Below, one piece after another: positions 4,968 through 55,844 of a DNA stretch of 64,000 nt. Position numbers and translations under genes: made by a program. Source of the stretch: Raja brachyura. Its lineage: Eukaryota. The notes under the pieces are model-generated. The model was not told the DNA's origin, did not search any database, and worked only from the letters and a program-made list of their open reading frames with translations. How positions within the stretch are numbered: the stretch's first letter is position 1; each line of letters opens with the position of its first letter. The DNA is taken from assembly GCA_963514005.1 (NCBI GenBank), contig OY740801.1, positions 38,440,001-38,504,000 of the forward strand, given 5' to 3'.

Positions 4968-6068
4968 CGACCTGGGCATGCGCAGTTGAAATATCGAACT
5001 CGCGTATTAACTTTAACTCATTTAGTGTAGGGATAATATAAATTTAGCTTGAAAGGGGATTGAGGCTTGATATAAAATGAAGATTATAACAAATATGGTT
5101 GCAACTTACTAAATTGAACGAATAGGCCATTCGACCCAGGTGCCTGCTGCACCATTGCACAAGATTATGCCTAAAATCATTCCCAGCTACAATCATCAAG
5201 ACATAAATTCTGACCAACTCTTGTTGGAGCCCCACAATCAGCTACCTTTCCACGGGAAAGTCATAGAGTTGGGAAACAAACTCATTGGCCCAACTCATCC
5301 ATGCCAATCATTATGTTGGTTGTCGACAAACGGAGAGAGTATGAGGTGCTGTTTAGGAAGGAACTGCAGATGTTAATTTACACCAGACACAAAATGCGGG
5401 AGTAACTCAGCGGGACAGGCAGCATCTTTGGAGAGAAGGAATGGGTGACGTTTCGGGTCGAGACCCTTCTTTAGTCTGAATGCACTCCTCGCAGTAACCG
5501 AGGACTTGGGAATGCTGCCTCAGTCGGCTTTGGACAAAGACTGTCCATGTAGCCAATGAAGAGGCAGGCATAGCCAGGTCCATGGCTGCACCTTTACCAA
5601 TGAGTGCAAGAGACAAGAAGTCATGTTCCAGCTGCATAAAAGTTTTGCTAGGCAATGTTGAGTATTGTGCAGTTCTGGTTGCCCCATTACAGGAAGGATG
5701 TGGAGGCTATGGAGATGGTATTAGCTATCAGAGGTTGGACAAACTTGGATTGTTTCTCTGAAGAATTGGAGGCTGAAGGATGAACTAATACAAGTTCATA
5801 AAATGAGAGGTACAGACAGGGCAGACAGTCAGAATATTTTCCCCAGGGTAAGTCGAAATACGAGAAGGCATAATTTTACAGTCAGAGGGCAAACGTTTAA
5901 AGGAGATGTGCAAGCCTTGGTATTTTTTCCCCATTGAGAGAAATGTAGGTGCCTGGAATATGCTGCAAGGGGTGGTACTGGAATCAGAGACAATTTTAAG
6001 TGGCTTGTAAATAGGCATGCAAATATACAGGGAATGGACAGATATATGGACAACATACAGGCAGAAGA

Positions 6069-6415
6069 AGATAGGCGACGTTTCGGGTCGAGACCCTTCT
6101 TCCTTTTTCGTAGGGAGGAGGAGAACTTCTTCAAAGTAGGCATACCTTGAGGAGATATCGCAGTGGAGTAGACAAAGTGTTAAAGAAGGAACTGCAGATG
6201 CTGGAGAATCGAGGGTTACACAAAAAGCTGGAGAAACTCAGCGGGTGCAGCAGCATCTAAGGAGTGAAGGAGATAGGCGACGTTTCGGGAAGAAGGGTCT
6301 CGACCCGAAACGTCGCCTATCTCCTTCACTCCTTAGATGCTGCTGCACCCGCTGAGTTTCTCCAGCTTTTTGTGTAACCCTCGATTCTCCAGCATCTGCA
6401 GTTCCTTCTTTAACA
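6069..6415. mobile_element. Young Penelope-derived fold-back element
   Basis: Perfect 112-bp inverted arms 6178-6289 and 6304-6415. Flanking duplication AACATACAGGCAGAAGA at 6052-6068 and 6412-6428. Confidence 0.9.
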
Positions 6416-7106
6416 TACAGGCAGAAGAGGTTGGTTTACTTTGGCATCATGTTCAACACATACATAATTGAACAAAGGGTCTATTTCAGTGTAAAAAAGT
6501 GCTGGCAGGTCAGGCAGCATCTGAGGAGGGTAATGGACAGATGATGTTTCTGGTCTGAACCATTCTTCAGAATGATTGAGTTGGGGGGAGGTAGAGAAAG
6601 CTGGACGGATGAGTGAACCAAGGAGTTGCAGAGAGAATGGTCTCTGCAGTAAGTGTAGTGTGTGGTGAGGATGGTGCCTGTTCCTGTGCTGTACTTAATT
6701 TGTAGTAGGAGGAATCAAGGGAAATTGTTAAGAGCAAGAACAAGTGCCACCAGGCTGAGTAGATTTGTCATTGCAGAAAAATCTAGCAATATCGATACAA
6801 CATTCCAGAAAAACACCCATTCACTTAATCCATCTATTCCCTAGATATATCTACATTCATTTATATAACCTCGGATGACATTGCCAGAGGAAAAATGTCT
6901 GAATATTTCATGTAAATCACGGAGAGCAGCAGGTAGGAGAGTAGTATCTCTTCTCCCTAGAGAGCTGGGAGAGCGATAGCAACCAGAGACAAATACTTCA
7001 CTAAAATGTAATGGCACATAATTTTATTTCAGGGAAGGTTAGGTTTATTGTCAAAAGCACTTACAACTTATTTTATTGCAGCCAAGCAATTAAAAAAAAG
7101 TTATTT

Positions 7107-20231: not shown

Positions 20232-20823
20232 AGGGCCTGTCCCACTTGGCCGTCATTATGCGCCATCATGCGTCGGCACAGCCGACTAGAGCGCGTGACA
20301 TCATTTGAAGATAGAAACAAAATGCAAGAGTAACTCAGCGGGACCGGCAGCATCTCTGGAGAGAAGGAATGGATGATGTTTCGGGTCAAGACTCTTCTTC
20401 TGTCTGAAGAAAGGCCTCGACCCGAAATGTCACCCATTGCTTCTCTCCAGAGATGCTGCCTATCCTGCTGAGATACTCCAGCATTTTGTGTCTATCTCCA
20501 ACAGTCTTGGCTCCGCTCTGGGAGTAAGAGTGGGGGTGAATCTGGATCCGCAACAGCTGTGAGCCCCAGGCCGAGCTCGGCGATCGTTTTCCTGCTTCTG
20601 CTGCTGTTGGCGGTGAGACGTTGCGCTATGCCAGGGTCTTGGGCCTGTCCCACTTTGGCCGTCAATTACACAACAGGCCGGTGGCGCGTGAAGATTTTGT
20701 GCAGGACGAAGCCCATACTCCTCCACGCCACTCCACACCACTCCATGCGCCTGTCCCGCGCTACCCACACGCTAGCAGGTCGCGTAAATGGCGAAAGAAT
20801 GACAGCCAATAGGGACACGCCCC
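20232..20823. mobile_element. Harbinger-type MITE remnants (two left ends, one right end) with a nested Penelope palindrome
   Basis: GGGCCTGTCCCACTT(T)GGCCGTCA at 20233 and 20641, and inverted TGACAGCCAATAGGGACACGCCC followed by TTA near 20800-20826. Confidence 0.7.
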
Positions 20824-29867: not shown

Positions 29868-30472
29868 ATTTTCATGATAAAAAGCAAAGATACTGATAAA
29901 AAGAATCAAGTCAAGTCAAGAGAGTTTATGGTCATGTGTCCCAGATAGGACAATGAAATTCTTACTTGCTGCAGCACAACAGAATATTGTAAACAAAAAT
30001 AGTAAGATTAAATGAGAACTTACCAGTTTGAAGTTTGATCTTTATTTTATGAGGATTTGCGATGAGGGATTTCGTGAAGACCCCGCCAGCACGCATGCGC
30101 GACATTCTTCAAAGCAGCGGTGTGGAATCACAGATTAAACAACAATGACTAAATATAGTAAGATTGAAGAGACTATTACCAGTTGACCTTATAGTAGAGG
30201 GTTGGAAGCGGAGGGCACAAAATCCCTCATCGCAACTCCTCATAAAATAAAGATCAAACTTCAAACTGGTAAGTTCTCATTTAATCTTACTATTTCATTT
30301 CGGAGTCACGTAAGTGAGTTCATGAAGATTTCAAAGCTCTGTGATTACATGCCCTGGATCATGTCCGTGCTCGCACACTGCCGCAATTCTGATGGAAGGA
30401 GTACGTTAATGTATTTCAGACTTGACAAGCTGAAAAATAATATAGTATTTATTCATACAAATCAAAAAACCC

Positions 30473-33441: not shown

Positions 33442-34842
33442 GTCGGTCGCTGTTGGCCCTGCCCTAAAAAAGGCTTTTGTTGTTGGGGTGCGGCCGGCGT
33501 GTAGGTCCTTGATATTCTTTCAGGTGGCCTCCGAGGTCTTACATATGGTGTTTGGCTGCGAGTAGCTGGCCTGCTGGAGGAAGGTGGTTTCATCAAACCA
33601 ACTGCCTTCGCCTCCTCGTCCAGGTCCTTGACCTGTTTGGGCAGGTCCTCACCGAACAGCTGTCTCAGTGGCGGCGTCGCAGATGCCTTCCACATCCCCG
33701 CGAACTTGGGGTTGAGAGTAGGCTTGATGGAGATTTTCCGGAAAGCATTAATTTCGTATTGTGTGTTACTCAATAGTGCAAGAGCATTTTCCTGCTCCTC
33801 CGTCATCTCCGTGCCATCAATAGATCTGGCAAAGGCCGTAATTCCTGATGTCAAAAGATTCAGGATCTTTTGAAGTTTAAGTTCCTGTGCCCTTATTCCT
33901 GGACTGATGTTGCCCCAGATGGATGTTCATTCAGTGATACACAATTGTTCGGGGCCTTATATTTGTTCATTGCCTCGGTTAGTACCTGATCCTGCAGCTG
34001 GTGTGTAGTAAGGACGTCAATACTTGCTGCTAGGGTACACAAAAAATGCTGGAGAAACTCAGCGGGTACAGCAGCAGCATCAAAGGAGTGAAGGAGATAG
34101 GCGACGTTTTGGGTCGAGAAGAAGAGTCTCGACCCGAAACGTCGCCTATCTCCTTCGCTCCTTAGATGCTGCTGCACCCGCTGTGATTCTCCAGCTATTT
34201 GTGTACCCTCGATTCTCCAGCATCTGCAGTTCCTTCTTTAAAACTTGCTGCTAGATTGGGCTGCAATGGCTGTCCTGAGTGCTTAGGTTCGGCAAATCTG
34301 GAAGCCACATCAAGAGGATCTTCTTGGGGTTTCTCAGCTGCTACAGGTTCCTCCGCCAACCCTTCTTCCACGTCAGCCAGCTGCTGACCCCTAGCACTCC
34401 CCACCGAAGATGTGAACATTCTGGGTGGCCCAGATGCATGTCTCCTGAAACTAGAGGACATCCGGTCCTGCTGCTGGAGATTTTGCTCAAGGAGTCGCTC
34501 CATCATGTGCTCCATACGGGCCATGCGACCACCGCCGCTATCTGCAGACAACAAGTCGACTTCCTCAGGTTCTCCTGAACTACTGAGGCTTCTGCCATCG
34601 GCCCGCACCTCGTCGAGGTGATGTCTAGGGTGCCTAGGCAGGATGTCGCTGCCTGTCGCTCCAGCGGGGCTCTGCGACTCCCGCGCGGACATGCCGCTGG
34701 TCCGCAGTCTTCCGGACTGAGGCGGCCTGCTTGTCTGGAAAGACATGAACGGTGAGGAGTCGGTTCCAGCCGCCGGAGCGGGGTTCACCGAATCAGAATT
34801 GCGGCAGTGTGTGGGCTTGCAGCCTGTCTTCCCCTGAGACAA
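33366..34842 (-). pseudogene. DIRS gag-like ORF1, interrupted by an insertion at 34034-34242
   Basis: ORFs 34195-34842 and 33893-34177 rejoin (PNLAAS|IDVL) when the insert is removed. LFGEDL motif in ORF 33366-33854. Confidence 0.75.
34034..34242. mobile_element. Penelope-derived fold-back element inserted in DIRS gag
   Basis: Same family as 6069-6415. 12-bp TSD ACTTGCTGCTAG at 34022-34033 and 34243-34254. Confidence 0.9.
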
Positions 34843-36662: not shown

Positions 36663-38495
36663 TAAAAGAATGAAAACACCAATAAGAACATGAGATAGAC
36701 TTGAGATAGACGCTGGAGTTGACGATTTTTTAGGCGACTGCCGGTGACTGTCATAGTCCTGGCAGGTCGCCGAAAAACCAGCAACTGCACCCTCCCTATG
36801 ACAATGTCTACGACAAGCTACAACAACCTACCACCTAGTCGACGGCAAGCTACCGACAACCGGCGACCCAATCGTCGCGCCTTAGGACGTCCACCCACGA
36901 CAAGCTACGACCCTGTCGGCGACAACTGAAGATAATTCACATCATTTTGGCCTCAAAAACAATGGAATCACCCAGTTTTCCTATAAAAGTGGTTGTACGG
37001 TAGGGTTTCCAATCATTGCAACACAGAAACATATCAATATTAAGTGGAAGGCAAATAAATTAAAACTTTTCACAAGCTGTGTGTGACAAAGAATTTCAAT
37101 TCACAAAAAGTATTATAAAATGAGATACCTGGTGAGCCTGCTGATGTGGTGGTCCCATCAGTCCCATCTGTTGCTGTCCCATGTGTCCCAACAGCTGCAG
37201 AACCTGCAACACATATTAATTCATTGTTAATATTTCATACAAAAACAGTAATATTAAGGTCAAATATTTAAGTAAAATGTTCCCAAAATTCCACAAAAAT
37301 TACTTAAAATATTTACCGGCTGGGAGACGTTATGGGCCATCGTCATGGCAGCCATGATATAGTTGAACCACATGTTTGCTGGTATCTTAAGCAGCTCAGT
37401 TTTACGAATCCCAGAAAGGTGTCAACAGCCCTCTCATGAGGTATCTGGGGCTGTGTCATGGCCTCCCTGGCCTCTGTTGCATGAGCTGCAATGGGGGGAA
37501 AAAAAAGATGGATGGATGGAAGACAAATTTCCTCAAAAGTACTTACCGCCTTGATCAGCTCCTGCTGACTTGCCTCTCTCTCCTCTACCTCAGTTGCTGT
37601 TGGGGTGGAGCCTGGAGTGGAGCTGGCAGTGGTCCTGCTTCTCTTGCTGTGCTGCTGACGGGTGGAGGGTGTGGATCCAGAGGTTTCCTCATGTGGGTCA
37701 AACTCCTTTTCGCTGGACCTACTGTGCAGCGGATTCTTGTCAAATGGAGGAAAATGGGTCTTGACCAGAAACGTCGCCTATTCCTTCGCTCCGTAGATGC
37801 TGCCTCACCAGCTTTTTTTGTCTACTTTGGAAGAAAATAAATGTGTTTTGCAAACTTTCAAGAATTTCAAGATAAGGCTCTAAAAAATAGCGGAGTCAGG
37901 GGATATGGGGAGAAGGCAGGAACGGGGTACTGATTGGGGATGATCAGCCATGATCACATTGAATGGCGGTGCTGGCTCGAAGGGCCAAAAGGCCTACTCC
38001 TGCACCTATTGTCTATTGTCTATTGTAAGACCATCAGGACATGGCAAGCAAGATGGCAATCAAATTATCAATTTCACAATAACCATTTTATAATAATTAC
38101 CTTCTTGGTGCTCTGTCTCCTCTCCACTCATACTATATGTGAACTGATAATGTCCCATTCGTCGACGATCCACTGCTGCCTAAAGTTTTTGCCACCAGAC
38201 CCAGACTTGTTTGCACTCTGAGACAGTTTGCCATATCTGGTTCTCTGGCTTTTGAACCACAGACAGAGTTGGGTGTTTGTAAAAAAAAAAGAATTAAGGC
38301 CAGTGTGAAATGCCTACCTGCAAGAAAATGGAAGAGCTACTGCTGGAAACTTGAAATATTAACAGACTACGTGTTACCACATATGAAAAAAAAATACACA
38401 GAAAAAAAAATAACGCCAAAATATACAATGTACAGGCAAACTTGCTGGTGGCACTATTATCTGTCCACAATTTCATGTCATGGCAAACAAGATGA

Positions 38496-39449
38496 CAAAC
38501 AATAGACAATAGGTGCAGGAGTAGGCCCTTCGGCCCTTCGAGCTAGTACCGCCATTCAATGTGATCATGGCTGATCATCCCCAATCAGTACCCCGATCCT
38601 GCCTTCTCCCCATATCCCTTGACTCCTTTATCTTTAAGAGCCCTATCTAGCTCTCTCTTGAAAGTATCCAGAGAACCTGCCTCCACCGCCCTCTGAGGCA
38701 GAGAACTCCACAGACTCACAACTCTCTGTGAGAAAAAGTGTTTCCTCGTCTCCGTTCTAAATGACTTACCCCTTATTCTTAAACTGTGGCCCCTGGTTCT
38801 GGACTCCCCCAACACCGAGAACATGTTCCCTGCCTCTAGCGTGTCCAAACCATTAATAATCTAATATGTTTCAATGAGATATCCTCTCATCCTTCTAAAC
38901 TCCAGAGTATACAAGCCCAGCCGATCCATTCTCTCAGCATATGACAGTCCCACCATCCCGTGAATTAACATGTAAACCTATGCTGTACTCCCTCAATAGC
39001 AAGAATGTCCTTCCTCAAATTAGGGGACCAAAACTGCACACAATACTCCAGGTGTGGTCTCACTTAGGCCCTAAACAACTGCAGAAGGACCTCTTTGCTC
39101 CTGTACTCAACTCCTCTTGTTATAAAAGCCAACATGCCATTCACTTTCTTCACTGCCTGCTGTACCTGCATGCTGACTTTCATTGATGAACAAGGACACC
39201 CAGATCTCATTGTACTTCCCCTTTTCCCAACTTGACACCATTTAGATAGCAATCTGCCATCCTGTGTGTTTAACCTCACATTTAGACACATTAAACTGCA
39301 TCTGCCATGCATCTGCACACTCACCCAACCTGTCCAAGTCACCCTGCATTCTCATAGCATCCTCCTCACAGTTGACACTGCCACCCAGCTTTGTGTCATC
39401 TGCAAATTTGCTAATTACTTTGAATCCCTTCATCTAAATCATTCATGTA
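38496..39449 (-). mobile_element. CR1 3' fragment
   Basis: ISKFADDTKLGG, TRGHSL and the CR1 3'UTR. Confidence 0.9.
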
Positions 39450-42325: not shown

Positions 42326-45147
42326 TGCCTATATATTTCTCGTTGGTCGGAATGACTTTCTGTGCTATTAACTCTTAACAAAAAGGTATATCAGGAATGC
42401 ATGCGTGATTGAAGAGTATTGCTGAAATGACACAAGGAACTGCAGATGCTGGTATTGCAACAAAAAAAAGACACAGTGCTGGAGTAACTCAGCGGGGCCA
42501 GCAGCATCTCTGGAAAAAAGTGGATGAGTGTCATTTTGCTCCGGGGACCCTTCTTCAAGTGTCAATGTGCGGCACGCCGAATATCATTTAAATTCCTTGC
42601 AGTTGTGCGAGCACCTGCTTTCAACTTTACTTTTTTTTAAATTCTCTATTTACGGGGTGACAGGATTTAAGAATTTAGGATGGATTCCTTTAATCTGCAC
42701 ACACGCAGTCCTGAACAAAGTCCAGTCAAACCGCACTTCCAATGGAAAACCAACGTTCAGTTAGAATTGCAGCTTGCTTTATAACACAGCAGATAACATT
42801 TACAGAACAGTAGATAATGGCAACAGTCCCAAGATTTGATTTTTTTTTTATAAACAAAAGTAAGGAATACAGAAATAATAATCTTTACCATTGGTCACCT
42901 AATTAGCAAGCAGCCATCATCTTTGTGGACTTTATGCTGCTGTTTTACTTCTTGTATATTAATTTGCACTTTTATTTTAAGATGACTCTGTAGAAGGCAT
43001 TTTAAACACCAAGAGAGAGAGTCTTTATTGTCATGTGTCCCAGATAGAACAATGACAATCTTACTTGCTGCAGCACAACAGAATATGTATTATATACACT
43101 GAAAACAATCTGATAAGAGGGAAAAAAAGAAAAAAACAAGTTCAGTGTGTATAAATGCACACAAATACACACACACATATATATACACATACTCAAAAAA
43201 CAAACTATAGTAGTGCAATAATTATAATAATAGTCTATTGTAGTTCAAAGCTTATTGGAGGTTATAACATTTAATAAGCCAATGGCTGTAGGGAAGAAGC
43301 TGTTCCTGAACCTGGACGTTACAGTTTTCAGGCTCCTGTACTCGCTTCCTGATAGCAGAGGTGAAATGAGTGTGTGGCCAGGATGGTGTGGGTCTCTGAT
43401 GATGCTGGCTGCCTTGTTGAACAGCGATTCTGATAAATCACCCACCGTGGCGACTGGGACCCAACAGGCCCCACTTAGTCTAGTCAAAACTTTTTGTCTG
43501 AATGTTTAATTGCTAGAACTGCCAGACTGTTCTCAAGGGTCACAGCAAGCCAGACACCAAGTGCTGCTGGAAGATCGTAGACTTGGTGAAAGACGCACTT
43601 GGATCTGCCCAATATTTGTTGGTCTTCCAATACCACAAGATGCCCACGAGTGAACGTTACCACATGGCATTTTCCAAGCTGCAGGAGTACATGCTGAGAG
43701 ATGCGTTGAAGCATGATGTCGCCAACAAGGCTTTGTGTGGAAAGACTATTTTACGGCTCTGTTGCCGTGAGTCATTGAGCTCAGGATACTTCCGGTTTCC
43801 AGCCCCGCGACGTGGATGCTTCTGCAATGGGGCCTGTGCTGAGGTAACTCAGCGGGACAGGCAGCGTCTCTGGTGAACATGGATAGGTAATGTTTCAGAT
43901 CTGAACCTTCCTTTGGGTGAAGAAGAGTCCTGAGCCGAAACATCACCTATCCATGTTTTCTTGTGTTGAGTTACCACAGGACTTTGTCCTTTTAAATAAA
44001 CCAGCATTATGGACTATCTTTGATCGGACTTTACTGGCTTTACTTTGCACTAAACGTTATTCCCTTTTCATGTATCTATACTGTAAATGGCTCGATTGTA
44101 ATCATGTATTGTCTTTCCGCTGACTGCTTAGCACGCAACAAAAGCTTTTCACTGTACCTCGGTACACGTGACAATAAACTAATCTGAACTGAACTGCAGT
44201 TCCTGCTGTCTCCATTTGTAAAACCAACACTATTCACATTGGAGCAACACACAATCTCCGCGGGATGAGTGACTGATGCAGGATTATAACTCCTTCCACC
44301 TCCCCCCCCCACCCCTGATGATTGTTGCTCTAGATTCCCGCCTCTGTTGTCCCTTCTGTTGCTATTAATCGGACCTTGCAATATACTATGTTGGAGTCTC
44401 CCCCTCAATCTGCCACAATGGTTTCGTATCTGCAATCAATGGTAATGTGACAGCACTCCTTTCTAACCTAAGAAATATAAATCCCCACATATATTTTGCA
44501 TTCACTGCAGTGAAAACTTCCCCTTTATTGGCATCTGCTGCTGGCCAGTTTCACATCACCGGCATTCAGCAGCAGTCATAACAATGGATAGTCACAGATA
44601 TGGAACGAGAAGACATTACTAAATTAACATGATGCAGAAAAATGGTAAATAAAACATTGCACCATATCCTTAATCTCAAAGTAGTAATTGCTGCATCATT
44701 AGTGCATGCTTCCAAATTCCTTAAATTTCTATTAAGGAAATTATAGTCTTATGTTCATAAAATTAATGATTTTAATATAGATTGATAAGCAAGAACTTGC
44801 AATGTAATTAAAAGTTTTCTCAAGTCTCTAGTAACTAAGTGGATGGTTCACAGGATATTTTAGAATGGAATTACTTTTAGTTTGTAAATTAAATTAGTTT
44901 GTAAACTCTGGTTGAAGAAGTCTGCAAAGAGCACAGTATAGAAATTGGTTAAGGTAAATCAGGTGTTAAAGAGCATGGGTACTGATCATTAACAAGGCTT
45001 TTTATTGGAACGAGTTTGGAAAGGAACACAAGAATGATAATGGGAAACAATGAGAGAGCACTTCACCTGAAGTTGGATGATTCAATGTTCAGCCTAGAAG
45101 GGAGCAAAGTGCCCAGGCTGCAGATCAGAACTGGTTGGGTTATTTGG

Positions 45148-45502
45148 CTTGGACAGGCTAGATGCAGGAAAAAAAGTTCCCGATGTTGGGGGAAGTCCAG
45201 AACCAGGGGTCATAGTTTAAGAATAAGGGGAGGCCACTTAGGACGGAGATGAGGAAAAACGTTTTCACCCAGAGAGTTGTGAATCTGTGGAATTCTCTGC
45301 CACAGAAGGCAGTGGAGGCCAATTCACTGGATGTTTTCAAGGGAGAGTATAGATCTTAGGGCTAATGGAATCAAGGGATATAGGGAGAAAGCAGGAACGG
45401 GGTACTGAATTAGGATGATCAGCCATGATCATATTGAATGGTGGTGCTGGCACGAAGGGCCAACTGATCTACTCCTGCACCTATTTTCTTTGTCTCTATG
45501 TT
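45148..45502 (+). mobile_element. CR1 3' fragment
   Basis: SRTRGHSLRIRG plus the CR1 3'UTR. Confidence 0.85.
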
Positions 45503-45673
45503 TTTTTTCCCAGGATTTTCTGTTTATATTCAGATTCCAGCACCTGCAGTTTTATTGATTTCCAAATAATGTGTTAAGTTGTTCTATAATTGACAATATT
45601 GCACATTGACAAAATGAATGTTACACCCATTCATTCTGTATGCTTTTTACACCCCACCCCTCTCATCTTTCAG

Positions 45674-45774
45674 CCTATTACAGGTTCCTGTTACTATTTT
45701 TCAACTGCCTGATGACTTTCGGATCCTATTTCTGCTTTGACATTCCCAGTGTGCTTCAGGAGCAGTTCCAGGGG
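45674..45774 (+). CDS. MFSD1-like transporter exon 2 (AYYRFLLLFFNCLMTFGSYFCFDIPSVLQEQFQG)
   Basis: The TM1 signature FGSYFCFDIPS resembles FGSYFCYDNP of MFSD1. Sites tttcag| and |gtgagt. Confidence 0.92.
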
Positions 45775-46602
45775 GTGAGTACTATATTGCCCACAGGATG
45801 AACTTGTTACCTAGTTAGTCACAAGAATGTGCAAATAACTTGCAACAAACCTGCTCTGTCTCCCTTTCCAAGGAACACTCTGCCTGCATGGTGCATTGGG
45901 CCTATAATATACGTCATATTCACTGTATGTTTACCAGCATGTAGTCGTGACGGCAAGACCTCCAGCTCAGGAACAGGCAGTTCAGCTCACCAAATCTACG
46001 GCATACATTGGGCACCTGTACACATTAGCCTTGCATTCTGCTGATATTATTCTGCTGATATTCATGTCCCCCTAGATATTACTACTCACCTCACCATTCA
46101 AGCCAATTTACGGTGGCCATTTAATCTATTAAGCGACAAACCAGACCAAATCCATACTATTACTGGGGAACTTGCAAACTCCACGCAGACAGCAACAGAG
46201 GTCACAATTGAACCCTCATTGCAGAGCTCCTTATCTCTTTGAATCAAAAACACAGAATACTCAAGAACCCTTGGCCTTCTTGTTTAAGCACCGATTGTTG
46301 TCAGGAGTGCACTGTCTGCCTGGTAATCATGTCATATAACAAGGTTTGGGATAGATTGTGTGCAGCCAGAGTCTCGTATTAATGTGACCTTACAAACGCA
46401 GCCACATGAGGGTGACAAGGGCTCAATAGAAACATAGAAAATAGGTGCAGGAGTAGGCCATTCGGCCCTTCAAGCCTGCACCGCCATTCAATATGATCAT
46501 GGCTGATCATCCAACTCAGTATCCTGTACCTGCCTTCTCTCCATACCCCCTGATCCCTTTAGCCACAAGGGCCACATCTAACTCCCTCTTAAATATAGTA
46601 AA

Positions 46603-51800: not shown

Positions 51801-53202
51801 CTGCCGCAGCTCCGAGGCCGCCAGCTCCACCATTAGGCCTCAGCACAGACGGAGACGGTGACAGGGCCACAACAAGAAAAGTGGCAGCCCCCTGAAGGGA
51901 GAGACTAAAACCCTGTTTCTCCCCGCCTCCCCCCCCCCCCCCCCCGCAACACACATACACAGCCTAATAAACCAAAATTCTAACTAAAACAGACACAAGA
52001 AGACAAAAACAAAAGAAAAAACAAATGGACTGCAGGTGCGCCGCAGCTGCCAGGCAGCGCCGCCACTTCCGGAGAAACACTGTTGTCTGGCAGTGTGGAT
52101 CATGTCCATTGTGCCTTTAGATGGACAGACTCCACAATATAAATTGGGTGCCACTCTTCAGTCATTGTGTAGGAGAGAACGGCAGATGCTGGTTTACAGC
52201 AAAGATAGACACAAAGTGCTGGAGTAGCTCAGCGGGTCAGGCAGCATCTCTGGAGAGAAGGAATCGTAAAACGTTTCAGGTCGAGATGCTTCCTTGGACT
52301 GAGTCAAAGATATAGAGAGATAATAATAATAATGCATTTTATTTATGGGCGCCTTTCAGAACACTCAAGGACACCTTACAGTTAAAACAAGCTAATTACA
52401 AACATATAAATACAGCAATAATACATAATTCAGAGAGAGAGTAGCGGCAGGTACTCGCGCCAGTGTTCAATCTCTCTTCCGGCTTCCATAAAATAACAGA
52501 ACCCACAATGAACACAGTTTAACATCCACCACAATGAGTCTATCAGGCACCTCCTCACTGTGATGGAAGGCAAAAGTCTTAAAGTCTTTATCTCTTCCTT
52601 CCTTGTTCTCCCTCTGCAATCCAGGCTTTTGATGTTGGGCCCCGCTGTGTGATGGTAAGTCCCGTGGCCGAATCCGAGCTCCGCGATCGGGCTGGTTCAA
52701 ATTCCGGGGCCCGGGGCGGATGAAGCTGCCACCGTCCAGTCCAGCGGACGAAGCTGTTGTTGCGGGAGCTCCGGAGAATCAGTCACCAAGCTGGGACCTG
52801 CAAGCTCCCGATTTTGTTGTCCACTGGGCTCCGAAGTCGGGCCGCCGCCGCAGCGTCACCACAGCCCCGAAGTCGGCCAGCTCTGCGATGGTGTGTCCTG
52901 GCTCTGCCTCCAGAGCCTCGAGGTCGGCCCCAGTTGGAGGCTGCCAGCTCCACGATTAGGCCTCAGCGCAGACAAAGACGGGGATACGGCAAAGAAAAGG
53001 TCGCATCCCCCTGAAGGATGGGACTAAAACAAGTTCCCCCACCTCCCCCCCCACATATGCACAACTAAAAATAAACTAAAACATACGTCCAACAAGACAA
53101 AATTTGGACAGAGCCAGCGTTCACTCTCACTTCTGAGATAGACAACAAATTAATGGAATATATGCAAAAAAGTACGATGATCAAGGAAAGGTGAACTCGT
53201 TA

Positions 53203-53397
53203 GTTACACAAAAAGCTGGAGAAACTCAGCGGGTGCAGCAGCATCTAAGGAGCGAAGGAGATAGGCGACGTTTCGGGTCGAGACCCCGAAACGTGGCCTA
53301 TCTCCTTCGCTCCTTAGAAGCTGCTGCACCCGCTGAGTTTCTCCAGCTTTTTGTGTAACCCTCGATTCTCCAGCATCTGCAGTTCCTTCTTTAACAG
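53203..53397. mobile_element. Penelope-derived fold-back element
   Basis: Same family. 13-bp TSD GGTGAACTCGTTA at 53190-53202 and 53398-53410. Confidence 0.9.
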
Positions 53398-54161
53398 GGT
53401 GAACTCGTTATCTAGCTACAGCAAACAATGGGTTCCATATTTCCTTGATCGTTACTTTTTTGCATATCTTCCATTCATTTGTTCTATATCACTGTCTATA
53501 TCTCTCATTTCTCTTTCCCCTGACTCTCAGTCTGAAGAAGGGTTTTGACCCCAACCGTCACCTATTCTTTTTCTCCAGCGATGCTGCCTGATCTGTTGAG
53601 TTACTCCAGCTTTTTGTGTCACTCTTCAGTCATTTATCTATTGGTCAGTCCTGAAAATGCACTGACTTGCATGGTAGTTTAATAAGCCTGCGTGAACGCA
53701 AAAGGTTATGTGAAGATAATATCTACATATCTTTTGCTTCCCCCATCCCTTGTCGTTTAAGGCGAGTTTATCTTATGGAGCTTTATTAGCTTTTGCAAAA
53801 TGTTAGTTATTTGTTTTGTTTGATGCTGGGAAATTTACAACCATGTCATGTTAATGAAGATGATCGCACTGGGGATAGCGGAGATAGGGGATATGGGGAG
53901 AAGGCAGGAACGGGGTACTGATTGGGGATGATCAGCCACGATCACATTGAATGGTGGTGTTGGCTCAAAGGGCCGAATGGCCTACTCCTGCACCTATTGT
54001 CTATTGTCTATAAAGTAATGTTTTGTTGAGGTTGGTCACAGATCTGGACTGGATTACAAATATGAGTGTGAAAAAAAGGATTGGGATTAACAGATGAATT
54101 GCGTTCTATGTCTGTCCTCTGTTGTCTCTGTCTGACAGTGTTGTGGCCCGTTCCATTCCAG

Positions 54162-54271: not shown

Positions 54272-55844
54272 GTAAGTATCTTACGTAATGAAATAAATAC
54301 TTTCACATTGTCCACAAGAGCTTTTTTTTATTTTTTCCAGCGCTCAAGCTAGGTAATAAATTTCAGTACAGTGATTCATTTTCATCCATCCATTTTACAT
54401 CAGTAAATGTTACCATTTATCACCATATGTGAACACATGACTCGTGTTTGTTACTGATGAGCAGGGTGAGGTAGCAAGTTTAAACAGGCTCTTCAAGTAC
54501 ATGGCTCACCGTGTATTCATTTTCGCTGAACTTGCACAATCTCCTAAGCATTTGTAGTTAGAGAGATAGTTATTTGTTGGCACTTAGAACAGAAACAAGC
54601 CCAGTTTTGCTTTTACTGTTTTCCACTTTAAGCGCACTGTAAACGACCATGAAAATGTACAGGTCTTTCAGCGCACAATGCCCCTGCCGATCATGATGCT
54701 GTTAAACTAATCTCTCTGCATGTCCTCCATTCCCTGAATCCCCACATGCCTATCTAAAGCCTTTTAAATACCGATCATATTTGCCTCCACCTCCACCCCT
54801 GGCAGCACATTCCAAGCATCCATCACTCTGTGTGTGTCTGAAACAAAACTGCCCTGCATATCTCCTTTAAACGTTGTCCCTCTCACCTTAAAGCTATCTC
54901 TTCTAGTCTTTGCCATTTCCACGTTGGATATGGGAGGAGAGGTTCTGATTGTCTATCTGTGCCTTTCATATATAGCTCATACCACCCTACAGCTAATACC
55001 CTATAATCCAGGCAATGTTCTGAATAGACACACAATGCTGGAGTAAATGGGCAGCATCTCTGCATAGAAGGAACGGGTGATATTTTGGGTTGAGATCCTT
55101 CTTCAGACTGAAAGCCAGGTGAGAGGAAGACAGAGATAAGGAAGGGCAAGGTGTGAAAACGAGACTTCAAAGGGGATGATTGATCGGGTTAAAACGTGGT
55201 CAGAGAGCCGGAAAGCAGGAGGCATCACAGACGGGGAGCAGCGGGAGAGAATTTCGCAGAACTCTCGTCGGAGAGAGGAGGAGAACTTCTTCAAAGTAGG
55301 CGATTGAGAAGATTTCACAGTGGAACAGACGAAATGTGTAGAAATGTGCAGATGCTGGGTTAGTCGTCTGCATCCTCTCCAATGCCGTCACTTTCTGCCG
55401 GTAATGGAGCAACCAAACCTGCGCACAATTCTTCAAATGCAGCCTAACCAAGTCCTGTAAAGCTGCATGACTCTGGTGCTGTTTCCCTTAATGCTACTTT
55501 CTTTGTTGATAATCTGGGATTTTCTGCTCTTAAAGGTTCCATTGCAGATTGCTTTTCCAACTGAGCGAGTTTTCTGGATTGATGAAGAACCTGTTTTTGT
55601 GAAAACGTTACTTTGTTCAACTTTGCCCAAGGCACAGCTTTCATTGTTGCTCTGGTTTGGAGTGATTCCAATTACATACCAATTAGCATCCAGTATTCTA
55701 CTGGCACAAAGACAATAAACTTTTGAATGTGAATTGTGAGATTCTACAAAAGTGGCAGGGATGAGAATAGTTTTGAGCAGTTGAGCTGGGAGTCAAGGTG
55801 AAGAGAGAGGAGATTGAAGAATAATTTATTTTGACATTAATGCT

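Follow-up and report, generated by a model that had tools for sequence, protein, structure and literature searches.

The fold-back insertions found in a 64,000-nucleotide stretch of the Raja brachyura genome (the window; contig OY740801.1, positions 38,440,001 to 38,504,000) are head-to-head insertions of the pLTR of an endonuclease-bearing (EN+) Penelope-like element (PLE), a structure already known, and they probably form when reverse transcription is primed on both strands of a staggered cut and the 3′ ends of the resulting pair of cDNAs anneal. The hammerhead motif, which the earlier note had made the pivot of the inversion, appears to be a bystander in fold-back formation. The origin of the inverted pLTRs and of the tails of PLEs is called open in the consulted portions of three reports (PMC3846280, PMC8557442, PMC11167929). 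In this young family, tens of thousands of copies supply countable junctions that separate models of PLE replication, and such a record of junctions formed in vivo is a usable clue to an open step of that replication.

The features in the window are listed in Table 1, with pLTR positions numbered from the C of CTGAAGA as +1; the GUC cut would come after +28. As the earlier note had described, the three young insertions share a fixed right end, and each has its own exact target site duplication (TSD), of 17, 12, and 13 bp; that of element 1 was confirmed by hand. The 112-bp perfect palindromic arms reported for element 1 were recovered letter for letter, but its left part totals 221 bp of element sequence, not 112. 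Specifically, this left part reaches, atypically, about 70 nt past the end of the right arm into the 5′ region of the element (73 nt that are 100% identical to the post-tail segment of the copy at locus L005) and then continues through an A-run, which was likely left when the template switched to an RNA ending in oligo(A), into a second short unit. Tails are present on both arms, a rare arrangement; the 35-nt tail of the direct arm is at 6379 to 6413, and the final bases of this arm are shared with the TSD. The hammerhead remnant of element 1 retains stem II and GAAAC-GTC, and the complete core is absent from all three young copies, which lack the CTGA box and whose direct arms begin at +3, +3, and +9. 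The arms of element 2 are joined at a microhomology of 2 nt, and element 3 is centered on stem II, with the loop oriented as in its inverted arm. Two older pairs, previously placed at about 20305 to 20497 and 43840 to 43975, are real and have 5′-edge junctions, but they are decayed, and a search for TSDs of at least 6 bp found none in either. The symmetry center, said to lie in or beside the motif, lies beside it in elements 1 and 2 and in both older pairs, and inside it only in element 3.

TABLE 1 Fold-back insertions in the window and their parts
Feature	Position	Strand	Basis or remark
Element 1, left TSD	6052-6068	+	17 bp, exactly repeated at 6412-6428
Element 1, second short inverted unit (pLTR about +3 to +36)	6069-6102	-	Inverted match, blastn
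Element 1, linker joining the units (short A-run plus G)	6103-6106	-	Read from sequence
Element 1, stretch that follows the tail (from the 5′ region of the element)	6107-6177	-	Not in right arm
Element 1, inverted pLTR arm (+18 to tail end)	6178-6289	-	Exact reverse complement of 6304-6415
Element 1, minimal-hammerhead motif, truncated (+3 to +28)	6289-6314	+	Sequence, junction map
Element 1, direct pLTR arm (+3 to tail end)	6289-6415	+	blastn, tail pattern, junction map
Element 1, right TSD	6412-6428	+	Exact copy of left TSD
Older-subfamily fold-back	20305-20501	.	96-nt arms, 83%, joined at 5′ edge of core
Element 2	34022-34254	.	12-bp TSD (34022-34033/34243-34254), exact
Element 2, inverted arm (+93 to +12)	34034-34119		
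Element 2, direct arm (+3 to tail)	34118-34242		
Older decayed fold-back	43876-43957	.	38-nt arms, 79%, joined at 5′ edge of core
Element 3	53190-53410	.	13-bp TSD (53190-53202/53398-53410), exact
Element 3, inverted arm (+92 to +9)	53203-53286		
Element 3, direct arm	up to 53397		

Family members were counted by sequence-pattern matches in a searched genome of 2.7 Gb. A 35-mer from the right end of the element has 20,235 exact matches genome-wide; the family thus comprises at least 20,235 tail-bearing copies, far beyond chance. Because longer copies with the same end encode, upstream of it, a reverse transcriptase (RT), a CxxC linker, and a GIY-YIG-type end, the short copies (stubs) are identified as the pLTR of an EN+ PLE; copies at loci L088 (3307 to 5221, frameshifted) and L089 continue into this same pLTR. 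The RT piece matched RVT_1 with an E value of 6.9e-05, which does not reach the Pfam cut-off, and had 0 matches among PDB sequences; the endonuclease piece had no match in Pfam. GIY-YIG clusters were found in the Atlas at 0.96 to 0.97, with the family on 13 to 22% of their members. The linker ahead of the GIY-YIG region reads PCNRKRCHTC or PCNRKRCYTC and conforms to CX2-5CxxC, a linker between RT and EN that, according to the relevant part of PMC8557442, defines the Neptune clade and is common to Nematis too; by its linker alone, the element is classed as putatively of Neptune type. The hallmarks of EN+ PLEs were all found, namely, an RT followed by a C-terminal GIY-YIG and joined to the pLTR (on ORF pieces), direct or inverted pLTRs with an optional 30- to 40-bp tail, and TSDs of variable length.

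The Penelope-like origin that the earlier note had proposed is therefore borne out by the RT/endonuclease-coding copies that carry the same pLTR, whereas its separate, non-coding fold-back family is contradicted by these copies and by the flanks of the symmetric junctions, which were independent in 20 of 20 sampled. A DNA MITE, for which a single shared junction with TIR-type ends would speak, was ruled out by the asymmetric ends, the TSDs of 11 to 19 bp, and the many different junctions. One junction recurs, solely through carriage inside a separate 3-kb element; a fold-back master that spreads as a unit was rejected, since this recurrent junction is one insertion carried by its host. The host element, which we presume to be hAT-like, is non-coding and 2.97 kb long, is 98 to 99% identical among six loci (L209 to L214, e.g., C1:39412500-39421500), and has short inverted ends, 8-bp TSDs, and several pLTR fold-backs inside, which it has spread to roughly 180 places (extrapolated).

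The ends of the two arms were mapped in a sample of 100 copies, all with the exact tail and all located within the initial 6 Mb of a single contig. An adjacent inverted arm is present in 42 of them (L057-4381, with an arm of an older subfamily, was left out of the fold-back counts). Inverted arms end between +88 and +102 in 36 of the 42, near +94, so that the left arm is not freely variable in length as had been thought; direct arms end between +127 and +132, near +129, this end being fixed by the tail anchor. When loci were chosen without regard to the tail, exactly one tail was found in 37 of 38 (26 of 27 once re-amplified copies are removed), and both arms are tailed in 2 elements among the 100 5′-edge fold-backs listed. 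Among the 42 fold-backs, 11 combine a shortened tail arm with a full tail-less arm, and 3 have the opposite arrangement. A TSD, mostly of 11 to 19 bp, was found in 36 of 44 fold-backs, with a median length of 15 bp, and in 23 of 48 direct copies; this count omits copies continuing past the tail or having no flank. A tail of 30 to 40 bp is a known feature of PLEs in the consulted parts of PMC3846280 and PMC8557442, and in vitro the tail of another PLE lies between two RT start sites, as stated in the portion of PMC11167929 that deals with them. By analogy with these sites, which they match, the two arm ends observed here would be two RT start sites. At L088 (3307 to 6746), two long parent copies lie tail to tail about 20 bp apart, one ending at each start site.

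At the opposite side of the pLTR, the 5′ ends of the arms are concentrated at the 5′ edge of the hammerhead core. Between −40 and +80, 44 of 81 such ends fall within −5 to +4, where a uniform distribution would place 7.5%; 9 of 84 lie in stem II and 1 of 84 at +28 to +30, and in 14 of 42 fold-backs neither arm ends within −5 to +4. The earlier idea that junctions are made anew at each insertion and cluster near the motif is thus upheld, and their spread along the pLTR is not uniform. Genome-wide, 2,501 tail-bearing fold-backs have two arms that extend to the 5′ edge of the core (including roughly 180 re-amplified copies, by extrapolation), versus 96 centered on stem II. Copy boundaries, each recognized by three non-matching letters upstream with one of four patterns that differ slightly in their specified letters, number 2,887 at −3 and 2,538 at −4, compared with 191 at +29, the GUC cut, and 196 at +33, the one control position; with no excess over the control, a role for the cut site is not supported. 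Solo copies display the same peak (24 of 58 in −5 to +4), several of them adjoin the TSD directly at −3 (L196, L197, and L201), and 23 of 58 non-fold-back copies reach beyond −12, through the site into the ORF. Most copies chosen by a −3 boundary (L179 to L208) stop at the first start site and are tail-less, a full tail having been found by eye in 8 of 30, and the family is consequently larger than the tail count.

The letters at −3, CCAGTCT, are initiator-like, and we infer that −3 would be the 5′ end of the RNA and likely the transcription start. The family also occurs in two other organisms in contigs that are only guessed to be RNA; 24 to 36 of these have loose ends ahead of −4/−3 (contig sets X2, X4, and X5, plus L035 at 1393/1394), although contigs cannot show an RNA start. 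A smaller second group of 5′ ends lies at +3, often after G or TAG (L006, L043, and elements 1 and 2 of the window), and may stem from a minor start site or from the self-templated addition of a few letters. Tandem arrays of three to five units of 61 to 65 nt, each unit spanning the interval between the cut site (+29) and the first start site, occur at L156, L161, and L177; the linker letters vary between the units of L156, and one array was also seen at the control position. The arrays starting at +29 could stem from repeated re-priming by RT on cleaved RNA.

The two arms are most commonly joined within a seven-letter near-palindrome, CAG-x-CTG, at −4 to +3, the center letter of which depends on the arm that supplies it. 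Relative to the tail arm, this letter is T in 354 cases and A in 364 (P = 0.74 for 1:1), which contradicts a snap-back of the tail-primed cDNA, since that would predict T only. In the stem-II class (n = 96; counted by hand), the loop is in the sense orientation in 30 cases and antisense in 47, while 9 are loop-less and 10 are of other types; loop-less perfect palindromes at 2-nt microhomologies make up 7 and 8 pairs among the 100 matches listed at +29 and +33, respectively. Both arms carry the variant T44C in 301 elements, and a single arm does so in 23 (about 120 versus 20 without the re-amplified copy), whereas independent templates at a frequency of approximately 5% would give about 1 to 38, and this concordance indicates that the arms come from one source. 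One junction is common to 30 of the first 50 concordant T44C elements listed, and the 9 of these whose flanks were read represent one insertion inside the host element; among the sampled fold-backs, 4 read C/C at site 44, 1 reads C/T, and 33 read T/T. As the arms retain many private changes, wholesale later homogenization is unlikely. The junction letters supplied by either arm, the loop-less palindromes, the truncation pattern, and element 1 together argue for RNA-templated synthesis of each arm, followed by annealing of the two cDNA ends, which, as part of the whole model, is probably correct. Where the 5′ region of the element meets a next pLTR unit, short A-runs were found in four of four joints (in the window linker and at L005, L035, and L043), as if RT, on reaching the RNA 5′ end, had switched to a 3′ end made of oligo(A).

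According to the model that we favor, the target would be nicked in a staggered manner about 15 bp apart, and both of its strands would prime cDNA at the two RT start sites, copying one RNA or RNAs of one source locus. The cDNAs would run off at the RNA 5′ end, −3, and their ends would pair through the short self-complementary letters thus exposed, mostly CAG-x-CTG and rarely stem II, after which repair would fill in and resolve the central mismatch either way; a solo stub would result where only one cDNA persisted. The hammerhead would mark the place merely by lying three bases behind the RNA start, and its cleavage would not be needed. In vitro, the protein of another PLE, a Poseidon element, is able to nick both strands and to extend them, does not depend on hammerhead cleavage, and is predicted to be dimeric (PMC11167929, in the portion consulted). 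An even chance is given to a wider proposal, which would replace antisense self-priming, that the fold-backs preserve, as fossils, the intermediate through which PLEs normally integrate: a dimeric RT-endonuclease would use the two tail-bounding sites of one RNA to prime both target strands, and each of the two cDNAs, once they met at the capped RNA start, would template the second strand of the other. If true, this reading would account in a single step for inverted pLTRs, one-sided tails, and the abundance of solo pLTR stubs.

The main rival retains the priming of both strands but makes the join intramolecular, in that the first-finished cDNA, whichever of the two it is, folds back, copies itself, and then anneals to a short opposite cDNA. 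Shared variants fit such a single-strand snap-back equally well, and short, locally templated inserts at junctions are also explained; the 1:1 center could likewise reflect this route, or later flipping of the center, instead of annealing of two full cDNAs. On the other hand, the commonest junction would require a 1-nt loop, the loop-less palindromes of the stem-II class and of the 2-nt microhomology pairs would have to form, and the extra left-arm sequence of element 1 would still require RNA-templated synthesis, so that we regard an intramolecular join as rather doubtful. Self-priming on an antisense template, put forward for head-to-head palindromes by Arkhipova et al. in 2013 (PMC3846280, in the section concerned), likewise leads one to expect palindromic junctions and shared variants; alone, however, it predicts neither two fixed arm ends 35 nt apart, nor the same −3 boundary in solo copies, nor the sense-strand A-runs seen at all four unit joints, and it is accordingly quite improbable here.

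A further possibility would leave the rest of the two-cDNA model in place and ascribe the pile-up at −3/−4 to a splice-site boundary or to a road-block for RT or protein at the hammerhead fold. The −3 site also reads as a 3′ splice acceptor, with a pyrimidine tract and CAG before −1, and an intron of Drosophila virilis ends at helix I in the pertinent passage of PMC4209133. The counts that bear on a cap-derived G are ambiguous: G precedes the −3 base in 53 among 100 matches listed versus about 29 expected, with many of these G residues originating in the other arm or in inserts; a lone G follows the TSD in only 2 of 30 loci. Yet the junctions contain no common upstream exon, the boundaries include letters −2 to −5 of unspliced sequence, and many copies read through the site into the ORF, which makes splicing or a road-block unlikely. 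The route suggested by the earlier note, in which the stem-II hairpin serves as the snap-back or template-switch point and yields a non-coding family, was assessed here for a tail-primed cDNA and with the cleaved hammerhead end as an alternative point; it can point to element 3 and the 96 genomic copies centered on stem II and to the few tandem arrays that begin exactly at the cut site. As the main pivot, stem II is refuted by the 26-fold-commoner 5′-edge junctions; moreover, snap-back of the tail cDNA predicts loops that are all sense, but 47 of 77 are antisense, cut-site boundaries do not exceed the control, and the insertions have independent flanks. We consider this route very improbable; stem II would serve, at most, as a minor source of microhomology.

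In LINE-1 twin priming, both target nicks prime on RNA, and the inverted 5′ part comes to lie within one TSD. The proposed formation of fold-backs from two annealed cDNAs resembles it in the priming at two nicks and in the inverted part inside one TSD; the LINE-1 parts, however, cover different stretches of RNA, whereas here both cover the same stretch from fixed internal sites. Closer to the present family, published complex insertions of EN+ PLEs have an inverted, 5′-truncated pLTR, a one-sided 30- to 40-bp tail, a TSD, and a palindromic junction (consulted parts of PMC3846280 and PMC8557442), and they share with it the head-to-head layout, the tail (35 nt here) on one arm, the junction overlap, and an inverted arm shorter than the direct one. 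Unlike the insertions described in those parts, thousands of copies here are stubs of about 220 bp; their TSDs measure about 15 bp versus 8 to 10 bp in the rotifer cases reported there, and their junction statistics favor two annealed cDNAs, in contrast to the self-priming on antisense RNA given in PMC3846280. In the in vitro work on PAc (Poseidon, Anolis), as far as the consulted text of PMC11167929 extends, two internal RT start sites likewise bound the tail, both strands are nicked and extended, hammerhead cleavage is dispensable, and no reads end at the cut site; PAc belongs to another clade, and the family here has the CxxC linker. That text offers neither an explanation of inverted pLTRs nor a map of the RNA 5′ end. 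Outside subscription journals and supplements, no publication that explains PLE palindromes by two annealed cDNAs was found, and no relevant literature on cartilaginous fish.

The minimal hammerhead motif that had been noted in the pLTR was confirmed by inspection of the parent pLTR, which has the core boxes, helix II, and a palindromic helix III; helix I comprises about 2 bp and helix II 4 bp. Rfam searched at the gathering score gave 0 matches, and single-strand MFE folds were not hammerhead-shaped. The motif agrees with the minimal type I hammerheads of PLEs in CUGANGA with an extra A, G10.1-C11.1, and the palindromic helix III, and differs from those treated in the consulted part of PMC4209133 in its short helices II and I, as in the D. 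virilis variant, and in the young window copies that lack the CTGA box. The same source mentions opposed hammerhead motifs 100 to 700 bp apart, as well as solo motifs, for PLE pLTRs. Non-LTR retrozymes, in the available portion of their description (bioRxiv 10.64898/2026.07.22.740005), are also short, non-coding, hammerhead-bearing pLTR derivatives of PLEs, and the few tandem units here (L005, L035, and L043) recall them; they form head-to-tail arrays with intact ribozymes, whereas the present elements are single head-to-head insertions. Classification of the window elements as non-LTR retrozymes was rejected on their head-to-head arrangement and broken cores. Thousands of near-perfect hairpins of 180 to 220 bp are present in this genome and might give rise to dsRNA on read-through; folding predicts long dsRNA from a read-through copy.

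Several other repeats lie in the window. A separate MITE-like element at 29997 to 30295 has inverted ends of 80 bp (98%) around a middle of 139 bp, and a different repeat, presumably a LINE-like end, forms inverted pairs at 37870 to 38648 and 45413 to 46512, with arms of 150 and 87 bp, respectively. On the minus strand, positions 55260 to 55358 hold an older relative (78 to 80%) of the tail and 5′ region of the element.
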